The translations under genes and the position numbers were made by a program. Under the pieces are notes generated by a model that saw only the letters and a list, made by a program, of their open reading frames with translations, was not told the DNA's origin and made no database searches. Below are positions 35,248 through 48,310 of a stretch of DNA of 64,000 bases, in pieces; position 1 is the stretch's first letter; each line of letters opens with the position of its first letter. Source of the DNA: a virus. Lineage: Duplodnaviria > Caudoviricetes. The DNA is taken from the IMG/VR virus record IMGVR_UViG_2882674194_000007, positions 1 to 64,000 of that record. One strand, given 5' to 3'.

Positions 35248-36120
35248 CTAAGATTTTTTATTTTCTCGCTTCCTATCTTTATACTTTTTATCTGACTTTC
35301 TATTTGATTCTTTTTTAGATAGTTCTGCACATTTATCACAATATAATCGCTTATTTCCTGTTTTTTCTATTAAAGAGCCACATTGTTTACAACGAGAATA
35401 AATATTTCCATGTCCACGCCTTACACCATAGTATTCCTTTTGGTAATTTTTAAAGTAGTTCTCCAATGTTCTGCATATATATCCAACATAGAAGTGATCC
35501 TCAGTTAAAAAATCCAACATTGTATTTATCTTGGTCTTATCTTCATATTCTCCAATAAGTTTGCAATTATCAAAGCATCTCTTCAAAAATTCTTCAACAA
35601 CATTTTTATATTCATTCCAAGACAAAGACATTTTTTCTTTTTGCAACTTTATTTTAACTTTTTGAGCATTATCTATTGCATTATCTATAAGTTCTGTAAC
35701 AGTATAAGTATCCATATCAATTCCAGAAATCCATTGATAATACAATTTTTTTGGTGTCTTTAATAAATCCATATATTCTTTGCTTAAAATAACTTCTTTA
35801 TCAAAGTATCGAGTGTATATATTATTTATCTTTTGTCTGATAATAGAGCACCAATTTTCATCTTTTGTCATTGATTTATAATATGTATATTCAATATCTG
35901 ACCAAGCATCAAAAGCTTGTCCAAGTTCTGTTTGTAACAAATCTTTTCTAACATTAAACCTTATTGACTTTTTATATATTCTCCGTTTATTATCAGAAGA
36001 CCAGATAGAAGAGCAGAATGAGTGAAAAATCTCATTCTTTTCTTCTTCTGTTTTGGTTTCTTTATAATTTTCTATGATTTCATATAAAAATGAATCATCA
36101 CATTCGTATATATGTATCAC
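35248..36120 (-). CDS. Hypothetical protein with C-terminal zinc ribbon, coupled to the RNAP gene
   Basis: CKQCG...YCDKC plus basic tail; overlaps YonO-like gene end. Confidence 0.75.
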   Translation of the reverse strand: MIHIYECDDSFLYEIIENYKETKTEEEKNEIFHSFCSSIWSSDNKRRIYKKSIRFNVRKDLLQTELGQAFDAWSDIEYTYYKSMTKDENWCSIIRQKINNIYTRYFDKEVILSKEYMDLLKTPKKLYYQWISGIDMDTYTVTELIDNAIDNAQKVKIKLQKEKMSLSWNEYKNVVEEFLKRCFDNCKLIGEYEDKTKINTMLDFLTEDHFYVGYICRTLENYFKNYQKEYYGVRRGHGNIYSRCKQCGSLIEKTGNKRLYCDKCAELSKKESNRKSDKKYKDRKRENKKS

Positions 36121-38788
36121 CTACCTCAAATTCATAATATTTACCAAGATATTCATAAGAATCATTGGTTTTATATGGAACCTCTTGTATTGAAACATTT
36201 CTTTTTGGATTTGTATTAATCCTTAAATTATCAATGATATAATCACCATAACCAGCCCATGCGAAGGATTTACTGATAGAAATAGAAGAGTACGAAACTT
36301 TAATTACATAGTTTGCAATCAATTCTTCATCTATTTGTAATTCATTTAATATACGCTTTCTATATTCTGTAACAATAGCATTCATATTAAACTTATGATT
36401 CTCATCATCTGACTTTTCTCTACGAAGCTTTATGTGCCTTCTAATTTCATCAGCATATTGATTAATATATCTTCTACATATCTTCATTATTTTTTTATCA
36501 GATAAATCCAGATCATTATTGATAATCAAGCATCGGGTATCAACCAAGTTATTTACATCATTATCCCAAAGAATATTTTTCTTCTCCCATGTGCAAATAT
36601 AGTCACATAATTCATTCATAGGAGAGGGAGAGTGATAAGCATTTAATTTTACTTTATCCTCTTTATTCTCTGTCTGCTTATTTTTTTCTAATAAAGTCTT
36701 ATATGTTTTAAGCTTTGAAGGATAATTGTAAAGCAAAAAATATGGAAGTTGCTTTAAATGTTTTCTCAATCCGCTGTTCATGTGCCAACGAAATCCCGTT
36801 TTTAAAAAGTCGATTTCTTTTCCTTGGTAGCATCTAAGTAATGAAGCATAGTTAGAATACAAAGTCTTTATCTCTTCATTGGTTGTATATCTGTTTTCAA
36901 TACTTGTCGCTACATTAGTAATTTCTCCGATCCTGTTATCTCTTGTCATAACCTCATATTCTATAATATTTTCTTTTGTGTATGGTTTTGATTGTGCTGT
37001 TACTTTATCCTCTATATCAAGAATGATATGTTTTTCAATCTTAGATTCAATAATTATGGGTTCATCACATAATAAAAATATATCTCCGTCACAGTCGGCT
37101 CCTCCTTGTTGTGGAAGAGATACATCATACATATTGAACATCACAATATCCTGATCTTTGAAATATCCAAACCATCTGTTGATAATATCATTCTTGACAA
37201 TTTTAACTTTGTTTACCTCTGAAGGATCTACTAATGGGGAGCGAAGTGAAATAATATCTCCACAATCAAAATTACCACTATATATTTCTCTTTCACCCAA
37301 ACAACCAACAGGTTTCATATCAACGGCATATTGTAAATATCCAATCATATCGCCAACACCTGTGTGATAAAATCCTGAACAATAAATTTTCCCGACTTTT
37401 GCCTCGTCAATGGATTTCTTCAGCTTTCGATATATAAACTGTTTTACTGCTGGATCTTTTAACATGACATCATTGATTAAGGCAGCTTCAAGATATTTAC
37501 TTTCTGGCTCATAACCATAAGTATCCATAATTCCCATGAACTTATAAGTATAAAATTTATCCCCTTTTATTATTTTTTCAAATAGAGAAGTAGTATACTT
37601 TGCTAAAGTCACAATTTTACCATCATTATTACTGTCAAGGATATCATAGTTGCCCACAGATTTATTTTCATAAGCATCAATGTACTTTTGATTCCATAAA
37701 TCCAAGCATTGTAAATACTGGAAATTCATCCTTGTATATTTGTTTAGATGTTTTACATGATGACTATATTTGCTGATCCCCAATTTAAACTTATATTTCC
37801 TAACGGTATTCATATATTCAACCCAAGCATTATCACCATACTTTTCTTTAAAAATCTTGTGACCTTTGAACATAGAAATATTCCAAATACAATCAACCAT
37901 ACTGATATGGTGCTTTGTACCATAAATATCTGTAATGTATTCGTATCCCCATTCTTTAAGAATCTGCCTAAATGGAACATAAACAGAATACCCTTTAACA
38001 AATGGTAAACGTACCTGTGTCCCGATAACATTATAATCAAGCCCTAATTGTGCGCTGACATTTTCCATAAAACCATGCTCATGACAACCACACCCGTCAA
38101 AAGGAGAAATTTTTAAATCTTTATATCCTTCTTCGATTTCTCTTGACTTATATTTTTTTGTTTTGCCAGTTTCCTTATCTACAAATTCTTTTTCCCTTTC
38201 GACAACATACTTGATTAATTGGTTCTGAAGAGTTTTCTCGTACTCTCTAATAATTACGATATTTGGCATATAATCTCTGATAAGAGTACAGGAGCTAAAT
38301 GGTAAACATCTTTGTGCTTCATACTTTGAGATTACACACTCATCAATTTCGATATCCATCTGTGTAATCATATATAATTCATCAAAAATTGAATCACATA
38401 CAAAAGCAGTAATTCCATCTTTACCTTGTGAAGCTGATTTTCCAAAACGAGTATAATGAATACCGTTATATGTAAAACCTTTATCTAAAATATGTCTCAA
38501 ATCTTTTTCTTGCTTTGGATTTTTCTTAGCTACAACAAGAATAATTTCGTCTATATGTGAAGAAAATTTTCCACGCAATCTCTCAATTTGATCAAATAAA
38601 GGGGAAGCACCTTGAGCGATAAGATATTCTTCTTTTATTTCTTTTTCTCTGCTGACAATTGCACTAAAGTTTTGCTTGATAAGTTCCCTGATTGGAATTT
38701 TTACAAGTGTATATTGAGTTGTTTCTATCTCACGTTCCTCCTCACTAAACATATTTAATTGCTTCATTATAAAAGTCTTTTGCGACAT
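36098..38788 (-). CDS. yonO: YonO-like single-subunit RNA polymerase (double-psi barrel, QDE-1/RdRP-related)
   Basis: DGCG, QVR..FVKG, LRSP, GGADCDGD (DxDGD), IDFLKTG motifs; SPbeta-like context. Confidence 0.88.
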   Translation of the reverse strand: MSQKTFIMKQLNMFSEEEREIETTQYTLVKIPIRELIKQNFSAIVSREKEIKEEYLIAQGASPLFDQIERLRGKFSSHIDEIILVVAKKNPKQEKDLRHILDKGFTYNGIHYTRFGKSASQGKDGITAFVCDSIFDELYMITQMDIEIDECVISKYEAQRCLPFSSCTLIRDYMPNIVIIREYEKTLQNQLIKYVVEREKEFVDKETGKTKKYKSREIEEGYKDLKISPFDGCGCHEHGFMENVSAQLGLDYNVIGTQVRLPFVKGYSVYVPFRQILKEWGYEYITDIYGTKHHISMVDCIWNISMFKGHKIFKEKYGDNAWVEYMNTVRKYKFKLGISKYSHHVKHLNKYTRMNFQYLQCLDLWNQKYIDAYENKSVGNYDILDSNNDGKIVTLAKYTTSLFEKIIKGDKFYTYKFMGIMDTYGYEPESKYLEAALINDVMLKDPAVKQFIYRKLKKSIDEAKVGKIYCSGFYHTGVGDMIGYLQYAVDMKPVGCLGEREIYSGNFDCGDIISLRSPLVDPSEVNKVKIVKNDIINRWFGYFKDQDIVMFNMYDVSLPQQGGADCDGDIFLLCDEPIIIESKIEKHIILDIEDKVTAQSKPYTKENIIEYEVMTRDNRIGEITNVATSIENRYTTNEEIKTLYSNYASLLRCYQGKEIDFLKTGFRWHMNSGLRKHLKQLPYFLLYNYPSKLKTYKTLLEKNKQTENKEDKVKLNAYHSPSPMNELCDYICTWEKKNILWDNDVNNLVDTRCLIINNDLDLSDKKIMKICRRYINQYADEIRRHIKLRREKSDDENHKFNMNAIVTEYRKRILNELQIDEELIANYVIKVSYSSISISKSFAWAGYGDYIIDNLRINTNPKRNVSIQEVPYKTNDSYEYLGKYYEFEVGDTYIRM

Positions 38789-42148: not shown

Positions 42149-43000
42149 TTATACCCACTTAGTTTTTCTGTTTTTTACACGATCATACTCTGTTTGTAAT
42201 ATTTGTTTTCTCTCTTCGTATGAGTAAATTTCCTGAGAAATAATTAACTGTGCATCATATCGTTCTAATCTTTCTACATCATCTAATTGATCTTCAGAAA
42301 AATAATTTCGTATCTGTTCATTAGAAGATATATTATGTTCTTTGCGATACTGTGTTGCAGACATTCCAAGTATTACAGTATTTAGTAATGAAAACTCAAT
42401 AGAGTATAAATTGCCATTAGTAATCCATTCAGGAACACCATTAAGTAATTCTTCTCTTTTTGTGATTAAAGCACCACGCAATTCTTTGCAATTAATTAAG
42501 GTGTTTTTGCGGTTTGTATTCCAGTTTGTACGATTTTTAAATGCTTTTTCTATAGCGATAAAATATTTTCTCACTAACTTGGACATTTTCTTTAGCTCTT
42601 CGGATGTACGTCCACCTTTAGAACCGGCAAGCATTGCAATTTCCTTTGCATCGCTGAGCTTTAACTGATAATCAACTAATCCACTCCCCTTTAAAGGTGA
42701 ATCAATAAAATAATCTATGTTTTTAACTAGTTCCAAATCTTCAATTTGTTGTTTGATCCAAGTTGAAAAATCTCGACTAACTTTTAATTGATTATGTAGT
42801 TCTTTTGCGCTAATTGTATTATTTTCATTTTCTTGTAAAATAGGCAAAAGTGACTGATATTCAAGGATTGTGGCTATTTCATTATCAGATAGTCCATATT
42901 GTTTTAATTCTTCTTCAGTAAATTGACCATCTTTGAATGACTCGCTTTCATATACTTTTTCTTTTCTTGGTTTTGTGGTATTTTTGTTTGTAATTCTCAT
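42149..43000 (-). CDS. AntA/AntB-family antirepressor
   Basis: ISAKELH.QL.V.RDFSTWIK, AKEIAM, VRKYFI.IEK. Confidence 0.85.
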   Translation of the reverse strand: MRITNKNTTKPRKEKVYESESFKDGQFTEEELKQYGLSDNEIATILEYQSLLPILQENENNTISAKELHNQLKVSRDFSTWIKQQIEDLELVKNIDYFIDSPLKGSGLVDYQLKLSDAKEIAMLAGSKGGRTSEELKKMSKLVRKYFIAIEKAFKNRTNWNTNRKNTLINCKELRGALITKREELLNGVPEWITNGNLYSIEFSLLNTVILGMSATQYRKEHNISSNEQIRNYFSEDQLDDVERLERYDAQLIISQEIYSYEERKQILQTEYDRVKNRKTKWV

Positions 43001-43034
43001 GATTTTATTCCTTTCTTTTATCTTAATTTTTAAT

Positions 43035-43193
43035 GTATATCACATCAGAGTGTGACATACTTGAAGAAAAAATGACAAAGTATATCACACCACAGTGTGC
43101 AGAATCAGCCGTCTTTTTATAAATAAAGACTAATTATATAAATAAAGACTACTATCGTAATGAATTATTCGCATACGCTTCATAATTCATTAC
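43035..43193. repeat. Direct and inverted repeats (iteron/operator-like)
   Basis: GTATATCACAyCAsAGTGTG x2 (43035, 43080); TATAAATAAAGACTA x2 (43118, 43137); 12-bp IR 43157-43193. Confidence 0.7.
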
Positions 43194-44428
43194 TCTCTTA
43201 AAAACTTTTTGATTGTTGATGGTTGGTGATGTTTGGTAGTTACAGGTGGTATAAATTACAAGTTGTAAGATAGAGTAGCAGTGTCTATTTACATATTCTC
43301 TTTCTTTGGATATAAAATTCCTTGTATGTATTAGATCTACAATAGAAAATGCCTTGGATAAAATTAATCAAAGTATTCAAGGACTTCAGCAAAAATAGCT
43401 GTTAAGTCCTTTTTAATTTCTGCTTTGTTAGCTTTAAAGGCATCTATATCTATGGTTAAAATGTAAATTTTTGAGGTATTATTTTAGGGTTTGTCATAGT
43501 TCATGTCTCCTTTATGTAAAATTTTGTATTTACTATTTGTTATTTCTACATTCTGATTTTGATAATGTTATAAATTTTAAATCTGTATTTTGAGCCAATA
43601 GGAGAGTATATGGACAGTAAATAATAAAATATGTAAAATATACCCCCTATGTATATATGGATTAGATTTTTGATTGATATGTTGGATATTTAATATTTCT
43701 CTATTTGAAATGATAATTACGATGAAATATATGGTGTATATTTTATGAGTTCGGTGATGAAGTAATTCTGATATAGCAATGGAATGTAAAAGTACTGATT
43801 TTACTGGATATTTTAAGATTCTTGTGAATGATTTTTAAATGTGATTTTATATATGATTTCTTTTCTTGAGTGCAATTTTAGAGTTAATTCGGGATAATGC
43901 TTATTTTTCAAGGGGTTTAGAAGTTTTTTTGGTTGTATTTTTGTGGTTTGGTAATAGATTTGAATTGTCAGAAAATTTATATTGTATTGATTTATAAGGA
44001 TTTTTGAGAAATGACACCGAATAGGATTCCGAATTGTTTTTACGAATTGTTTGTGTTTCGGACACAATTTTTAAAGGTGATGTGTGAATAGAACAGATAG
44101 GGGCTTTCTGGTAATTACTGATCAATTTCAAAATGTAAACATACCCCTGTATAGTGTTATTGCATATTTTAAGTTACACTTTGCCCATTTTTGCAACCGA
44201 ATGAAAATATATATTCTGTCAAGTAAAAATACTTTACAATGATATTATCCGGCATTTGTCAAGTAATTTTGCTTGACATGTTCGATGTATAAAGCAAAAT
44301 ATATCAAAATGCTATTTTTATATACCATAATACTACATCTATATTATCCAGCAACATCATAATATCACAACTCAAAATATATCATAATGCTATCTAATAT
44401 ACCAAAATGCCACATAACCATCCTTCTA

Positions 44429-44635
44429 TCAATCCTCTTTCCCCTGAATATATCCATCTCTTTCCAACTTTTCCACAATAGCGGTAGTAGTCCATCTATT
44501 CCGGTTCATTCCACTATCAGCCATAGCTTTTTCAACTTCCCGATATATCTCAATAGGGTATTTTACACTGTATTGTTTCATGTTCTCAGCGTCATATTTT
44601 GCTTGATATTCGCTCTGTTTTTTTCTATCTGACAT
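44429..44635 (-). CDS. Small ribbon-helix-helix-like regulator
   Basis: KQYSVKYP..IY..V..A....GMNRN.W...AI.EKL. Confidence 0.7.
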   Translation of the reverse strand: MSDRKKQSEYQAKYDAENMKQYSVKYPIEIYREVEKAMADSGMNRNRWTTTAIVEKLERDGYIQGKED

Positions 44636-44671
44636 TTTATACCATCCTTTTTAAAAACCATCTTAAATTGC

Positions 44672-44812
44672 ATTTTAACACGTATTACCTAAGTTGTCAA
44701 TCAATTAGCAAACTGCACAAAAATAACTAGGTAATACCTAAAATAATTATGTATTATTTTGCTATAAAAAACTAGGTATTACGTTGACAATCTAGGTATT
44801 ACGTGTTATAAT
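44672..44812. promoter_or_regulatory. Divergent promoters with four TAGGTAWTAC operators
   Basis: TTGACA-17-TATAAT (44784-44812), leftward TTGACA (44700-44695); operators at about 44682, 44728, 44773, 44793. Confidence 0.75.
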
Positions 44813-44908
44813 CTATACATAAGTTAAAGATAAAGTGTCACACCAAAACAAAGAAGTATATAGCAACAACTACACACAAACAACCACAATGAAAGACAGG
44901 TACACAAT

Positions 44909-45133
44909 ATGAGAATACATTTAAACAATGCAACAGTTAGAGTATCAGGTTTTGAAAACAAAGAAACATTTAATCACACATATCACAATGTTACTTGTAT
45001 TGAAGAAGTAACAGCAAAAGAGATTGAAAAAGAATGTGGCGAAAAAATAGGTGCTTGCATTAGATTACATTTTGAAGATGGTAAAACAGCTACGTTTTCT
45101 AAAAAGTCAAAATTAGATTATGAAGTATTATAA
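44909..45133 (+). CDS. Hypothetical early protein
   Basis: First ORF after the strong promoter. Confidence 0.7.
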   Translation: MRIHLNNATVRVSGFENKETFNHTYHNVTCIEEVTAKEIEKECGEKIGACIRLHFEDGKTATFSKKSKLDYEVL

Positions 45134-45192
45134 ATCCCCTGATGAGCAACGGTGAGAGCCGGCGAAACTACCCAAACAAGGGTAGTCGGGAT
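45134..45192 (+). ncRNA. Hammerhead ribozyme, type I
   Basis: Stem I ATCCC/GGGAT, CUGAUGA 45139-45145, stem II with GAGA loop, GAAA, stem III CTACCC/GGGTAG, GUC cleavage triplet 45185-45187. Confidence 0.92.
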
Positions 45193-45314
45193 ATCAACAC
45201 AACCCAAATAAGCACCACAAAGCACTTTGATAATTGAATAGACTTTGCATCTAAGTTGTGATATACTAACAGTATCAGCCATACATACAATCACAACAAA
45301 AAGGCGGTGATCAT

Positions 45315-45545
45315 ATGACAGATAGTGAAAAACTTGATCTGATTCTTGAAAAAGTAATAACACTTGACAGGAAAGTGACAGACATTGAAAAAGATATGAT
45401 TGATGTTAAGGCCGATTTAAAACAAACTGAACGTGTCTTAAAAAATGAGATACGGAAAGAATGCGGATTAGTGCTCGATGAGATTGAAAGAGTACACGAT
45501 ATCTTAGATAAGCACAAAGAAGATAAAGCAGCACATACAGCATAA
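45315..45545 (+). CDS. Coiled-coil hypothetical protein
   Basis: AGGCGGTGA RBS, own promoter, terminator 45574-45614. Confidence 0.7.
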   Translation: MTDSEKLDLILEKVITLDRKVTDIEKDMIDVKADLKQTERVLKNEIRKECGLVLDEIERVHDILDKHKEDKAAHTA

Positions 45546-45623
45546 GCAACAACATACATATATCACATACCACGGTGTAAAGTCTATTGAATTATTAAGG
45601 CTTTACACCTTTTTAATTTTGTT

Positions 45624-45875
45624 CTAAGGTCTTGTATATGAAGGGCAATTTTGTCCTTTGCAAAGGGCTCCATTGTTTAAAGAAAAAGGACTTTTACAAG
45701 TGCCTACATTATTACAATATTTACATTTTTTATATTTTCTTGATTTGTTATATTCGTAAATATAACCTTTACTATGTATTATATTTGAACCATCGTTATG
45801 GTTAATATCATGGTTCAATCTAGTGTTATAATCTTTTATAATATTTTCAGCCGATTTATTTTTCTTTTTGCTCAT
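45624..45875 (-). CDS. Basic Cys-rich hypothetical protein
   Basis: C-terminal Cys cluster. Confidence 0.5.
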   Translation of the reverse strand: MSKKKNKSAENIIKDYNTRLNHDINHNDGSNIIHSKGYIYEYNKSRKYKKCKYCNNVGTCKSPFSLNNGALCKGQNCPSYTRP

Positions 45876-45951
45876 AAATATCACAACCTTTTACTTTTTA
45901 TTGTAGAATAAATGTGATAGAATATCAATAGTAAAGGAAGGTGAATATTTA

Positions 45952-46152
45952 ATGATTGCTTATTATAAGTTATTAGATATGCTTAATAAAAGAGATATGA
46001 CAAAAGAGCAATTAAGATTAAAAGCTGGACTTGCTTCTGGCACAATGACAAAAATTTCAAAAGGTGAACCTGTAAATTTAAAAACGATTGATCTTATTTG
46101 TAAAGCATTACAAGTACAACCTGGAGATATTCTTGAATATATAGAAAAATAA
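45952..46152 (+). CDS. Cro/C1-type HTH regulator
   Basis: Y.KL..ML...MTKEQLR...TIDLICKAL.VQPGDILEY. Confidence 0.9.
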   Translation: MIAYYKLLDMLNKRDMTKEQLRLKAGLASGTMTKISKGEPVNLKTIDLICKALQVQPGDILEYIEK

Positions 46153-46188
46153 AATCTCACGAAAATAGAAAAAATCTCTAATAAAGTG

Positions 46189-46217
46189 TTGACAAGTAAA
46201 ACGCAATATGCTATTAT
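46189..46217 (+). promoter_or_regulatory. Sigma-A-type promoter
   Basis: TTGACA-17-TATTAT with upstream TG. Confidence 0.7.
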
Positions 46218-46224
46218 ATACTTG

Positions 46225-47015
46225 TAAGGAACACAAGGGAATATAAATCGGTATCACGGCAGTGTCAATAAGACCTGATACATTCTCAACATGGCAGCGT
46301 CAATAAGTCCAGGAGCGATAAAAAGAAAAATCCCAGTTCCAAACGAAACCGGGAAATTTCAAGTAAGTGTGTAAAACTCTTACCCTAAGCAAGTAGAGTA
46401 TAACACAATTCTTGATAATCTGTCAATCGGCAGAAATTTCCCAAAACAAAGTAACTATTAACGTCCTGTCAAGTGGAGTGCTAACAGGATCGTAACTAAG
46501 GCAAAGCAACAAGAGATTGCAAACGAGGTTAGAGAAAAGATAATTGATTCATTAAATTTCCGCAACCTAACGGGAAAACGTGACAGATAGCAGCGTAAAA
46601 ATGTTATCCGTGTTGACTGGACACGCTGACTACATCGGAGACGTGATAGTTCATATCATATCAGACGTAGCAGGGAATACCATCCCAAACCAGAAAATCT
46701 ATGAATATGTGTGAATGCGAGTAGGCAGAAACAAGAGTTTTGCGGTGACTGATTCTGAAACCGTGACCTGTGGGGTGTGGTAGCCGTAACGGGAACGAGA
46801 GACAATCTACTATAATATAGATGGCTCTTTTGATGATAATTTATCGCTGTAGAGGATGGACGGGGAGAAAACACAAAACGATAGACTATATAAAATGGTA
46901 GTTGTAAACCGTGGTTATGGAAGGCTGAGAAATACGTCTTCCAACCGCTAATAAGCGGTATATAAATATACATAAGAACCTTTAGAGAGTGTCAAGAACC
47001 TTTGGCACTCTCTTT
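46225..47015 (+). ncRNA. Putative large structured RNA or leader (~790 nt)
   Basis: Promoter, no + ORF, GC-richer with many hairpins, terminator AGAGAGTGTCAA...TTGGCACTCTCTTTT. Confidence 0.55.
46320..46390 (-). ncRNA. Putative short antisense RNA
   Basis: TTGACA (46426-46421)/TGnTATACT (46402-46397), terminator TCCCGGTT...AACTGGGA plus U tract. Confidence 0.55.
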
Positions 47016-47024
47016 TATATTAAA

Positions 47025-47652
47025 AGCGGTCAACTGCTTTTCAAAAGAAATGTGATGTTCAAGCGAGAAGGAAAAGAGAAATAAGTATTACATCCTGTAA
47101 GGGCTGCCCATGTGGTCATAAGTGCATATATCAGGCACAAGGAAAAGTGATAACCCGTGACACAAGCTTTTTTACATTTGAAAGATTGCACGTATAAAGA
47201 AGGAAGTAAAAATGTAGCGCAAGATAAGGGCGTTAAACTTTCAATCGCTCAAGATCGGCAATGCGATTAATAAATTGTGCCGGCATTGTGTGAAAGCAGG
47301 TATCACACTTACAATGATTACCGCCACAAAGATTTGAGTGTAATAAAATCTGAAAAGTCAGTAAAAGGCGTGGGACTACTGGAGAAGATAATAAACACGA
47401 CAGGCGAACCCCTGAAAAGGAAGAAGGTTATACTATAACTGTAAACTTAAAAAGCTGCTGTCTGGATGCCTGACATATACGGCATATTACATAATTTTAT
47501 TATTTATCATGCCCATAAAAACAGAATCAAACGTGAGGCGGTGCGGAAAGCTGGTGAACCACTCAATACAATGAGGACATAGCCATAAAGCCGGATGCAT
47601 TTAGCCATATCCTTTGAAAAGTCTCTTTTGTGGGCATGGATAAGTAATAAAA
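47025..47652 (+). ncRNA. Second putative large structured RNA region
   Basis: ORF-free, multiple hairpins, ~27-bp stem 47496-47521/47626-47652. Confidence 0.45.
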
Positions 47653-47683
47653 GATATGATAATATAGATGTGGAGGAAAAAAT

Positions 47684-48310
47684 ATGAAATCATATGTAAA
47701 ATATGTTGAATGTGCAGATTGTGGAAGAAAAATTCCTATTTGCAACGCCCATTACATCAACGGAAAACCTTATGGATATGGTTGCTATAAAAAGCAGGTT
47801 GCATTACTCTATAAGCGATGGGAAGACGAAAAAAACGCCGAATATTCTGTAAAATGTTTCGCTGCTATGCAAGTGTTTCAAGATAAAAAAAGTAATTCCT
47901 TTCATGATTCTATATGTAAGCAATGGAACGAGTGCAAAAAACTAACTGCTAAACAGTTAAATTGCATCATAAACGGATTTACTGATCAGGAAAATATAAA
48001 TTTCTGGATAATATGGCAACAACTTACAAATGACGAATGCTTAAAATGGAGTATTCCGTTATGGGTAGAAAACACCATTTATAAAAATAAAAAAGGTTTT
48101 GCTGATTATATGGAAAATGAGGCGGTTATAAATTGTTTGCTTTATGATCGCACATATAATAAACAAGGTTTTTATTTTTCCCATGATTTAGAAATTGATC
48201 CAGAAAGAGTTTGTATAATGAAAAATGGTAAAAATAATATTTATCTTCAGGAAGATATAGAAGATGAATATATAGAAGTATTAAAAGTAGTTGAGGGCAT
48301 ACGGAAATAA
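47684..48310 (+). CDS. Hypothetical protein with N-terminal Zn finger
   Basis: CADCG...GC; GGAGG RBS. Confidence 0.75.
   Translation: MKSYVKYVECADCGRKIPICNAHYINGKPYGYGCYKKQVALLYKRWEDEKNAEYSVKCFAAMQVFQDKKSNSFHDSICKQWNECKKLTAKQLNCIINGFTDQENINFWIIWQQLTNDECLKWSIPLWVENTIYKNKKGFADYMENEAVINCLLYDRTYNKQGFYFSHDLEIDPERVCIMKNGKNNIYLQEDIEDEYIEVLKVVEGIRK

Follow-up and report, generated by a model that had tools for sequence, protein, structure and literature searches.

A predicted large non-coding RNA faced by an antisense small RNA in the early region of a temperate Lachnospiraceae phage

Structured bacterial and phage RNAs longer than ~500 nucleotides (nt) are few, and OLE, GOLLD, ROOL and raiA have each opened structural and functional work. 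Two of these, ROOL and GOLLD, are encoded in prophages and phages, have no known function and represent a kind of RNA that undergoes homo-oligomeric, RNA-only assembly (PMC12286853). Here we describe a unit at positions 46225-47015 of a 64,000-nt stretch of viral DNA (Duplodnaviria; Caudoviricetes; positions 1 to 64,000 of the IMG/VR record IMGVR_UViG_2882674194_000007), hereafter the window. On balance, we favor the view that this locus comprises two predicted RNA genes facing each other: one for a structured RNA of ~800 nt and the other, embedded within it, for an antisense small RNA (sRNA) of ~70 nt.

In the plasmid systems typified by ColE1 RNA II/RNA I, R1 CopA and pIP501 RNAIII, a short hairpin-rich antisense RNA is made from a convergent promoter near the 5' end of the long RNA, and allelic variation in the antisense stem-loop gives incompatibility specificity. 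Antisense or immunity RNAs with convergent promoters are also represented by P22 sar, P1/P7 c4, P4 CI, pCF10 Anti-Q and the pR/pL arrangement of coliphage 186. A hypervariable antisense stem-loop is typical of the specificity determinants of antisense-controlled replication or immunity systems. The unit also bears comparison with lactococcal phages. Their c2-type (Ceduovirus) origins are non-coding, free of ribosome-binding sites (RBS) and located behind the first early promoter; the non-coding origin transcript PE1-T is reported to be crucial, with both its length and its structure said to matter, and the origins share >90% identity within a type and are unrelated between types, with chimeras being non-functional (PMC7150918).

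Predicted transcripts and modular layout

Pattern scans recovered related loci in three species genomes (the uncultured Lachnospiraceae metagenome-assembled genome (MAG) MGBC136627, hereafter MGBC; Roseburia sp. 1XD42-69; and Lachnospiraceae bacterium COE1), five metagenome contigs and two IMG/VR contigs. These amount to about nine distinct loci besides the window and are cited below either by organism or by locus label (L020 and so on). The unit and its parts are as follows:

46189..46217, plus strand: sense promoter (TTGACA, 17-nt spacer, TATTAT, TG extension; 11 of 12 consensus matches)
46224..47022, plus strand: predicted long sense non-coding RNA (ncRNA) of ~800 nt, spanning block A, the W body and the terminator
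46226..46450, plus strand: block A, a conserved 225-nt leader with 87-95% identity in ten other loci
46255..46275 and 46290..46310, plus strand: tandem 21-nt motif CAYGGCAGYGTCAATAAGNCC, the copies lying 35 nt apart
46397..46426, minus strand: promoter of the antisense sRNA (TTGACA at 46426-46421, 18-nt spacer, TATACT at 46402-46397, TG; 11 of 12 matches)
46390 to 46321, minus strand: predicted cis-antisense sRNA of ~70 nt, with two hairpins and a U-tract
46361-46385, minus strand: variable 5' stem-loop of the sRNA
46331-46354, minus strand: conserved terminator hairpin of the sRNA, followed by the U-tract
46451..46950, plus strand: type W body of ~500 nt, predicted to be structured and non-coding
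46984..47013, plus strand: intrinsic terminator of the sense RNA, a 13-bp stem followed by TTTTATATT
47014..47084, no strand assigned: tail of the terminator block, conserved and containing another hairpin at ~47020-47040

As predicted, a strong sigma-A-type promoter would drive the long RNA from a start near 46224 through block A and the W body to the intrinsic terminator. This promoter is kept in seven of the nine distinct loci, with a perfect TATAAT in L027, L028 and L029; in MGBC and Roseburia block A stands without a promoter of its own. In the loci with this promoter, block A is conserved from the predicted +1 onwards. At the other end, the terminator retains its stem and varies in its loop among loci, with changes in the stem being compensated, and its plus-strand column-shuffle z is -12; in L023 another stem of equal strength takes its place. 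The terminator block as a whole (~46950-47084) is common to loci with either of the two types of body described below (W and M), and its tail is 83-88% identical across W-type, M-type and Roseburia-type loci.

Sense-frame stops occur at ~7 per 100 codons in all three frames across 46218-47683, where the longest open stretch is 57 codons, and the stretch free of open reading frames (ORFs) runs beyond 47015 up to 47683. The GC content of the unit (0.38-0.44) exceeds that just upstream (0.25-0.32) and the window mean (0.32); the excess is only modest because the downstream coding DNA is itself at 0.33-0.39. The 791-nt plus strand folds at -202 kcal/mol versus -174±5.5 for dinucleotide shuffles (z -5.1), and the minus strand shows a z of -4.2. 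A first-pass annotation had described this region as a large ornate ncRNA of ~790 nt with a consensus promoter, no sense ORF, a GC content above the flanks, dense hairpins and an intrinsic terminator. Each of these features is recovered here, including all five of the hairpins it named, and compensatory changes in relatives keep the helices of the unit. The part of that description that does not stand is the single RNA: the relatives show the unit to be composite.

A convergent promoter within block A would drive the sRNA, which is predicted to fold into two hairpins. This promoter is invariant in eight of the nine loci, with L029 having TACACT. Several features of the sRNA are specific to the antisense strand. 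One pair of its terminator hairpin is G.U in some loci and U.G in others, whereas on the plus strand the same position is a mismatch in every variant. All eight sRNA variants form the two hairpins, at -22 to -30 kcal/mol versus -11 to -18 for the plus-strand complement, i.e. a minus-strand advantage of 9-15 kcal/mol in each. Thus, with its own promoter, an intrinsic terminator opposite the predicted target and an antisense-strand-specific structure, it has the features of an antisense countertranscript. The 5' stem-loop is the sole hypervariable part of block A: there are at least five alleles, each of which is still a hairpin, and they assort independently of the type of body, as illustrated by the allele shared by MGBC (type M) and L028 (type W).

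The sRNA is fully complementary to ~+100 to +167 of the long RNA. It could pair with the nascent or the finished long RNA, and its promoter would fire head-on into the sense promoter ~180 bp away; through either or both, it may gate the amount or the folding of the long RNA. Since the 5' stem-loop is the one hypervariable spot in a conserved module, this gate is probably allele-specific, by analogy with phage immunity and plasmid incompatibility RNAs. Read on the opposite strand, the -35 consensus gives TGTCAA, and this motif is found at four places in the 791-nt unit (46263, 46421, 46469 and 46990) where 0.2 would be expected; one copy belongs to the antisense promoter, and another lies in a further promoter-like sequence of the minus strand (46268-46240; 11 of 12 matches), which is aimed into the sense promoter.

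Relative to column shuffles, block A folds better on the plus strand (z -4.2) than on the minus strand (z -1.9). Its tandem 21-nt motif is found nowhere else in the window, and L029 retains one copy after a precise 35-nt deletion. Several more specific identities for block A were rejected. A 27-codon frame with an ATG start (46291-46374) does not survive in relatives, where 2-nt indels interrupt it. A CsrA-type sponge does not agree with the frequency of GGA (15 observed against 14.5 expected). A pseudo-antitoxin (ToxI/CptI-like) for a host type III toxin finds no counterpart in the ~40-nt repeats of the host contig C109, which are unlike the block A motif. The latter host locus (L032; G000:C109:1-2683, ~600-1210) is a type III toxin-antitoxin-like locus with a promoter, two ~40-nt tandem repeats, a terminator and a frame of the ToxN family (E 1e-20) that is interrupted internally by a TAA codon.

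As judged from the comparison of loci, the unit is a composite of a conserved leader, an antisense sRNA gene and an exchangeable body, rather than a monolithic ornate RNA.

The W and M bodies and their relatives

The slot between block A and the terminator block is filled by one of two kinds of body, and in some sister phages small protein genes come ahead of it. Type W is found in the window, in L027 (~91% identity) and in L028 and L029 (~71-75% over the whole unit), and falls into two sub-variants, W1 (window, L027) and W2 (L028, L029). Type M occupies the same slot in MGBC, L023 and L024/L026 (~95% to each other), with a 70% copy in Roseburia. Within close sets both types show 91-96% identity. 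That W and M are a single diverged family is not shown: their pairwise identity is ~43%, and covariance models of their best-supported sub-domains retrieve their own type at E <= 1e-29 and never the other. Within the W body, the first part (46451-46560) is near-invariant among W copies, whereas 46561-46950 is diverged and covarying.

Neither type behaves as coding sequence. Substitutions lack codon periodicity in both (p is 0.89 in W and 0.80 in M; a coding control gives 1e-15), and the W sub-variants differ by indels of 5, 3, 4, 2, 1 and 11 nt. The first-pass annotation had named hidden small ORFs as what might explain the conservation instead; in the W body the search for them came out negative. 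Sense ORFs of 31 and 44 amino acids (aa) are not conserved in W2, and an antisense frame of 105 codons goes from 111 to 82 to 70 codons among relatives and is broken in L027 and L028. An open stretch at 46461-46590 gives a protein-like reading with two synonymous-looking substitutions; it was rejected as a gene, as it has no ATG, GTG or TTG start and is followed by a 5-nt indel.

Between the window and L028, several whole hairpin stems are exchanged (UGAUA/UAUCA for ACAGG/CCUGU; GGGA/UCCC for GCGA/UCGC; and CGGU/ACCG for CAAG/CUUG around a constant CUGAUUCUGAA loop), with the loops and junctions between the covarying stems remaining constant. The consensus structure of the long RNA has 205 pairs in 33 helices, with 22 compensated. 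The count of compensated pairs is 22 in W versus 8.5±2.3 in within-pair shuffles (2-4 in slid controls) and 20 in M versus 5.6±2.0 (0-2 in slid controls). Because the structures came from the same alignments, they were re-predicted on column-shuffled alignments: the re-folded values are 17 versus 9.0±2.2 for W and 19 versus 5.1±2.2 for M, and none of 40 shuffles reaches either. Consensus-energy z-scores are better on the plus than on the minus strand (-3.0 versus -2.6 for W; -4.7 versus -2.35 for M). On this comparative evidence both types of body are structured and non-coding; that of type W would work as a folded RNA, with covarying stems and constant loops and junctions.

The first-pass annotation had likened the unit to the ROOL/GOLLD class in size and location and had proposed OLE and introns for comparison. 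None of these affiliations is borne out. Rfam at gathering scores returns tRNAs alone across the whole window; at E up to 10, nothing meaningful is found in 45500-47800, the sub-threshold matches being at chance level (E >= 0.76); and at E up to 0.1, neither ROOL, GOLLD nor any other family is found in the related loci L020-L022. ROOL, GOLLD, OLE, HEARO, raiA and group I/II introns were accordingly rejected for want of a covariance-model match. Since Rfam yields only tRNAs and chance-level matches, the unit falls in no known family, and the remark that it may be new gains support: the structured non-coding unit is probably new to the curated families.

Sequence searches point to a restricted distribution. 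There was no match to the unit by blastn (word size 11) in 50,697 phage records, nor in deposited plasmids. Among 400 sampled genomes of the family, one (G187) holds a real homolog, and 300 family genomes sampled from G187 gave no further one. Scans of viral contigs for the dual motif or for the 5' pattern of block A, and scans with a shorter-anchor pattern and an M-type pattern, likewise gave no further homologs. Two candidates (L030, L031) were rejected as chance matches to a 23-mer within a tail-fiber gene. With about nine distinct loci found, the lineage is narrow.

Genomic setting and alternative explanations

The unit lies in a large, temperate-type phage with phage-like genes, a leftward arm and a rightward early operon, and is present as a single copy in its own genome. 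The window encodes AntA, a Cro/CI-type helix-turn-helix (HTH) protein, a tyrosine integrase, a YonO-like polymerase and three tRNAs. The phage is a temperate one of mouse-gut Lachnospiraceae; among annotated phages, Thomasclavelia TR-TP1, Enterocloster PMBT24 and the SPbeta group come nearest to it. An 896-aa protein (36098-38788, minus strand) matches Pfam RdRP (E 1.8e-13) and is distant kin of SPbeta YonO, a match that places the phage among the carriers of a YonO-like single-subunit RNA polymerase. The surroundings of the unit include the following:

up to 46152: Cro/CI-type HTH gene, ending 5' of the unit
47085..47480, plus strand: module S, a further stretch without ORFs that separates the terminator block from block C and behaves as an optional cassette
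47488..47652, plus strand: block C, a conserved structured element of ~165 nt directly 5' of the first downstream ORF
L021 extended locus 421-612, L023 extended locus 2182-2388 and L022 extended locus 379-576: gene for a 63-68-aa protein

Module S is found in L026 (86%) and partly in L023 (76-90%), and is absent from L020, L021, L027, L028 and L029. Block C is 90-96% identical in six loci and has a long closing stem and no Rfam match; one of its internal hairpins is compensatorily replaced in L029, and its 5' half is missing in Roseburia. After block C, the window has a 208-aa ORF of unknown family, in place of which L020 (4354-4898), L021, L026 and L027 carry a 104-aa DUF4258 (toxin-like) gene and a 75-aa partner. 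The 63-68-aa protein shows 41-51% identity among three loci, with an AGGAGG RBS in Roseburia; its gene stands after block A or further down the array and has no counterpart in the window region. Small HTH proteins are also encoded among the genes after block A, as seen in a protein-level check. Multi-kb purely non-coding arrays, considered for Roseburia and L023, were rejected in view of these conserved 63-68-aa genes and small HTH genes. In COE1 (L022, 1727-2989, minus strand), a Mutator/IS256-family transposase (E 4e-103) lies ~780 nt past block A, in place of the terminator block and block C, and thereby disrupts the locus of that prophage. The region as a whole is modular and recombination-prone.

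Upstream, 43000-44400 is a 1.4-kb AT-rich stretch (GC 0.24-0.29), poor in ORFs, with a strongly positive GC skew and short repeats; it adjoins the cumulative GC-skew minimum (~42.5-43 kb) and is a candidate origin or attachment region. Positions 43739-45271 are kept in Roseburia at 89%, and 45163-45271 are 80-90% conserved across several loci. A search of Rfam at E up to 1 over 43000-45700, which takes in a hammerhead ribozyme candidate at 45134-45192, yields no match to the hammerhead.

Several points weigh against the proposal of two facing RNA genes. Type W offers only two effective lineages, W1 and W2, so its covariation statistics are thin, and the alignments were made with MAFFT, which is not structure-aware. 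The counts of compensated Watson-Crick pairs are equal on both strands, so that the strand assignment rests on the energies, the promoter and the terminator. Finally, conserved genes for small proteins come after block A in Roseburia and COE1, and in MGBC and Roseburia block A lacks its own promoter; as the leader precedes protein genes in some loci, neither it nor its antisense gate is confined to the W and M bodies.

These last observations bear on the best-surviving alternative, which we nevertheless hold to be unlikely: that the unit serves the early operon as a leader acting in cis instead of being an independent RNA. Block A would then be a nut/put-like processive antitermination site or another leader element allowing read-through of 46984-47040 and later terminators, the antisense sRNA would control this read-through, and the W body would be a tolerated spacer or stability element. 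The order of lambda elements is cro, nutR and tR1, and the order of the Cro-like HTH gene, block A, terminator and early genes mirrors it. There is no strong promoter between the sense terminator and the 208-aa gene, the tandem 21-nt motif could be a factor-binding site, the promoterless copies of block A imply that it can sit within a longer transcript, and block A precedes protein genes in Roseburia and COE1. A spacer, however, would not need helices compensated well above the null, as those of W and M are, and the sense terminator is itself kept by compensation. Like lambda nutR and HK022 put, block A lies 3' of a Cro-like gene and 5' of terminators and carries one or two hairpin-borne motif copies; unlike them, it has no identified boxA/boxB-like consensus or antiterminator protein, and the number of motif copies varies between one and two, L029 having lost one.

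Alternatively, the conservation might reflect a DNA-level element (an origin, a packaging site or a protein-binding array), with transcription being incidental or merely activating. We regard this as quite improbable. The equal visibility of compensated Watson-Crick pairs on both strands, the excess of TGTCAA, the continuation of conserved sequence beyond the terminator and the precedent of the c2 origin in a similar genomic position would all suit such an element. Against it, wobble pairs in the sense terminator and in the sRNA hairpins are strand-specific, consensus energies favor the plus strand, the boundary of conservation falls at the predicted +1, and the unit contains no iterons, DnaA-box cluster or AT-rich unwinding region. 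A lack of any function, the unit being a degraded coding region or neutral sequence separating early genes and folding well by chance, is very improbable: the narrow distribution in apparently one phage lineage, the protein-like reading of 46461-46590 and the recombination-prone setting could fit it, but both W and M show more compensatory changes than their re-folded shuffles, the loops and junctions lying between covarying stems stay constant, codon periodicity is lacking, the protein-like stretch has no start and is followed by an indel, and the promoter, terminator and antisense gene are all maintained.

Possible roles and comparison with known systems

What the two facing RNA genes proposed here might do can be addressed by analogy. 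As the leading but tentative reading, the long RNA may be an early transcript serving phage DNA replication, akin to the PE1-T origin transcript of c2, the nearest precedent that has been tested. Four observations count against this origin-type role: the unit has no DnaA-box cluster or AT-rich unwinding stretch, the cumulative GC-skew minimum at 42.5-43 kb lies outside it beside the other AT-rich, ORF-poor stretch, the unit has no sequence similarity to deposited phages, and block A also occurs without being bound to a W or M body. A trans-acting scaffold or decoy RNA, with a role of the sort suspected for ROOL and GOLLD, is an equally tentative possibility, and a purely cis-acting leader is, as noted above, an unlikely one; broadly, the trans-acting and nut/put-like leader roles are about as likely as the origin-type role. 

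A more speculative proposal, which we offer with considerable doubt, is that one YonO-type Lachnospiraceae phage lineage has a fixed expression slot (promoter, leader with an allele-specific antisense gate, and terminator) that loads exchangeable, unrelated folded RNAs of ~500 nt (W, M) as replication origins or takeover RNAs. On the former branch, these would be alternative RNA-primed origins under ColE1-like antisense control in a temperate phage; on the latter, they would form a new class of exchangeable large RNAs for host takeover or counter-defense. In either case, two unrelated folded RNAs in one genomic slot constitute a natural swap experiment, and experiments look feasible, since three related prophages come from a mouse-gut MAG or from the cultured strains Roseburia sp. 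1XD42-69 and Lachnospiraceae bacterium COE1.

The comparison with ROOL and GOLLD is one of general character: like them, the unit is phage-borne, non-coding, 0.6-0.8 kb long and rich in helices. Unlike them, it has no covariance-model match and a very narrow distribution, lies away from a tRNA island (the tRNAs of the window are at least 11 kb off), and is a composite in which the leader is shared, an antisense sRNA gene is embedded and the body can be exchanged. Were it to act in trans, it would be a new member of this unexplained class of large phage RNAs.

The comparison with c2 PE1-T is closer in layout. The unit is likewise non-coding, lacks an RBS and follows an early promoter close to the early/late divergence, and its W and M types, like the c2-type origins, are conserved within a type and unrelated between types. 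There are also clear differences. The promoter of the unit is not the first early promoter, a switch promoter lying near 44.8 kb (families D2 and D18), and the unit lies ~1.5 kb inside the early operon rather than between divergent gene blocks. It ends at a strong terminator and includes a predicted antisense sRNA, for which no counterpart is described in c2. The separate AT-rich stretch at 43.0-44.4 kb would be an alternative candidate for the origin here, and no homology to the origins of c2, bIL67 or 923 was found by the blastn search of the phage records described above.

With the ColE1-type countertranscripts the locus shares a long structured RNA and a short stable antisense RNA with an allelic stem-loop. 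It differs in having no Rfam match to RNAI, in the antisense target being at +100 to +167 rather than at the extreme 5' end, in that no RNase H or origin site has been identified in the unit, and in that the leader precedes protein genes in two loci. If the long RNA is nonetheless an origin transcript, temperate gut phages would join plasmids and lytic dairy phages in having RNA-primed, antisense-controlled replication.

The phage and plasmid antisense-immunity RNAs provide the remaining parallel. Unlike in those systems, there is no target RBS or attenuator terminator in or just after the duplex region of the unit. Like them, it combines face-to-face promoters ~180 bp apart, an early regulatory region and a small terminated antisense RNA. 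By the same analogy, the allelic hairpins of the sRNA suggest the existence of specificity groups, and the hypervariable hairpin of such a built-in antisense regulator hints that these might operate among co-circulating phages.

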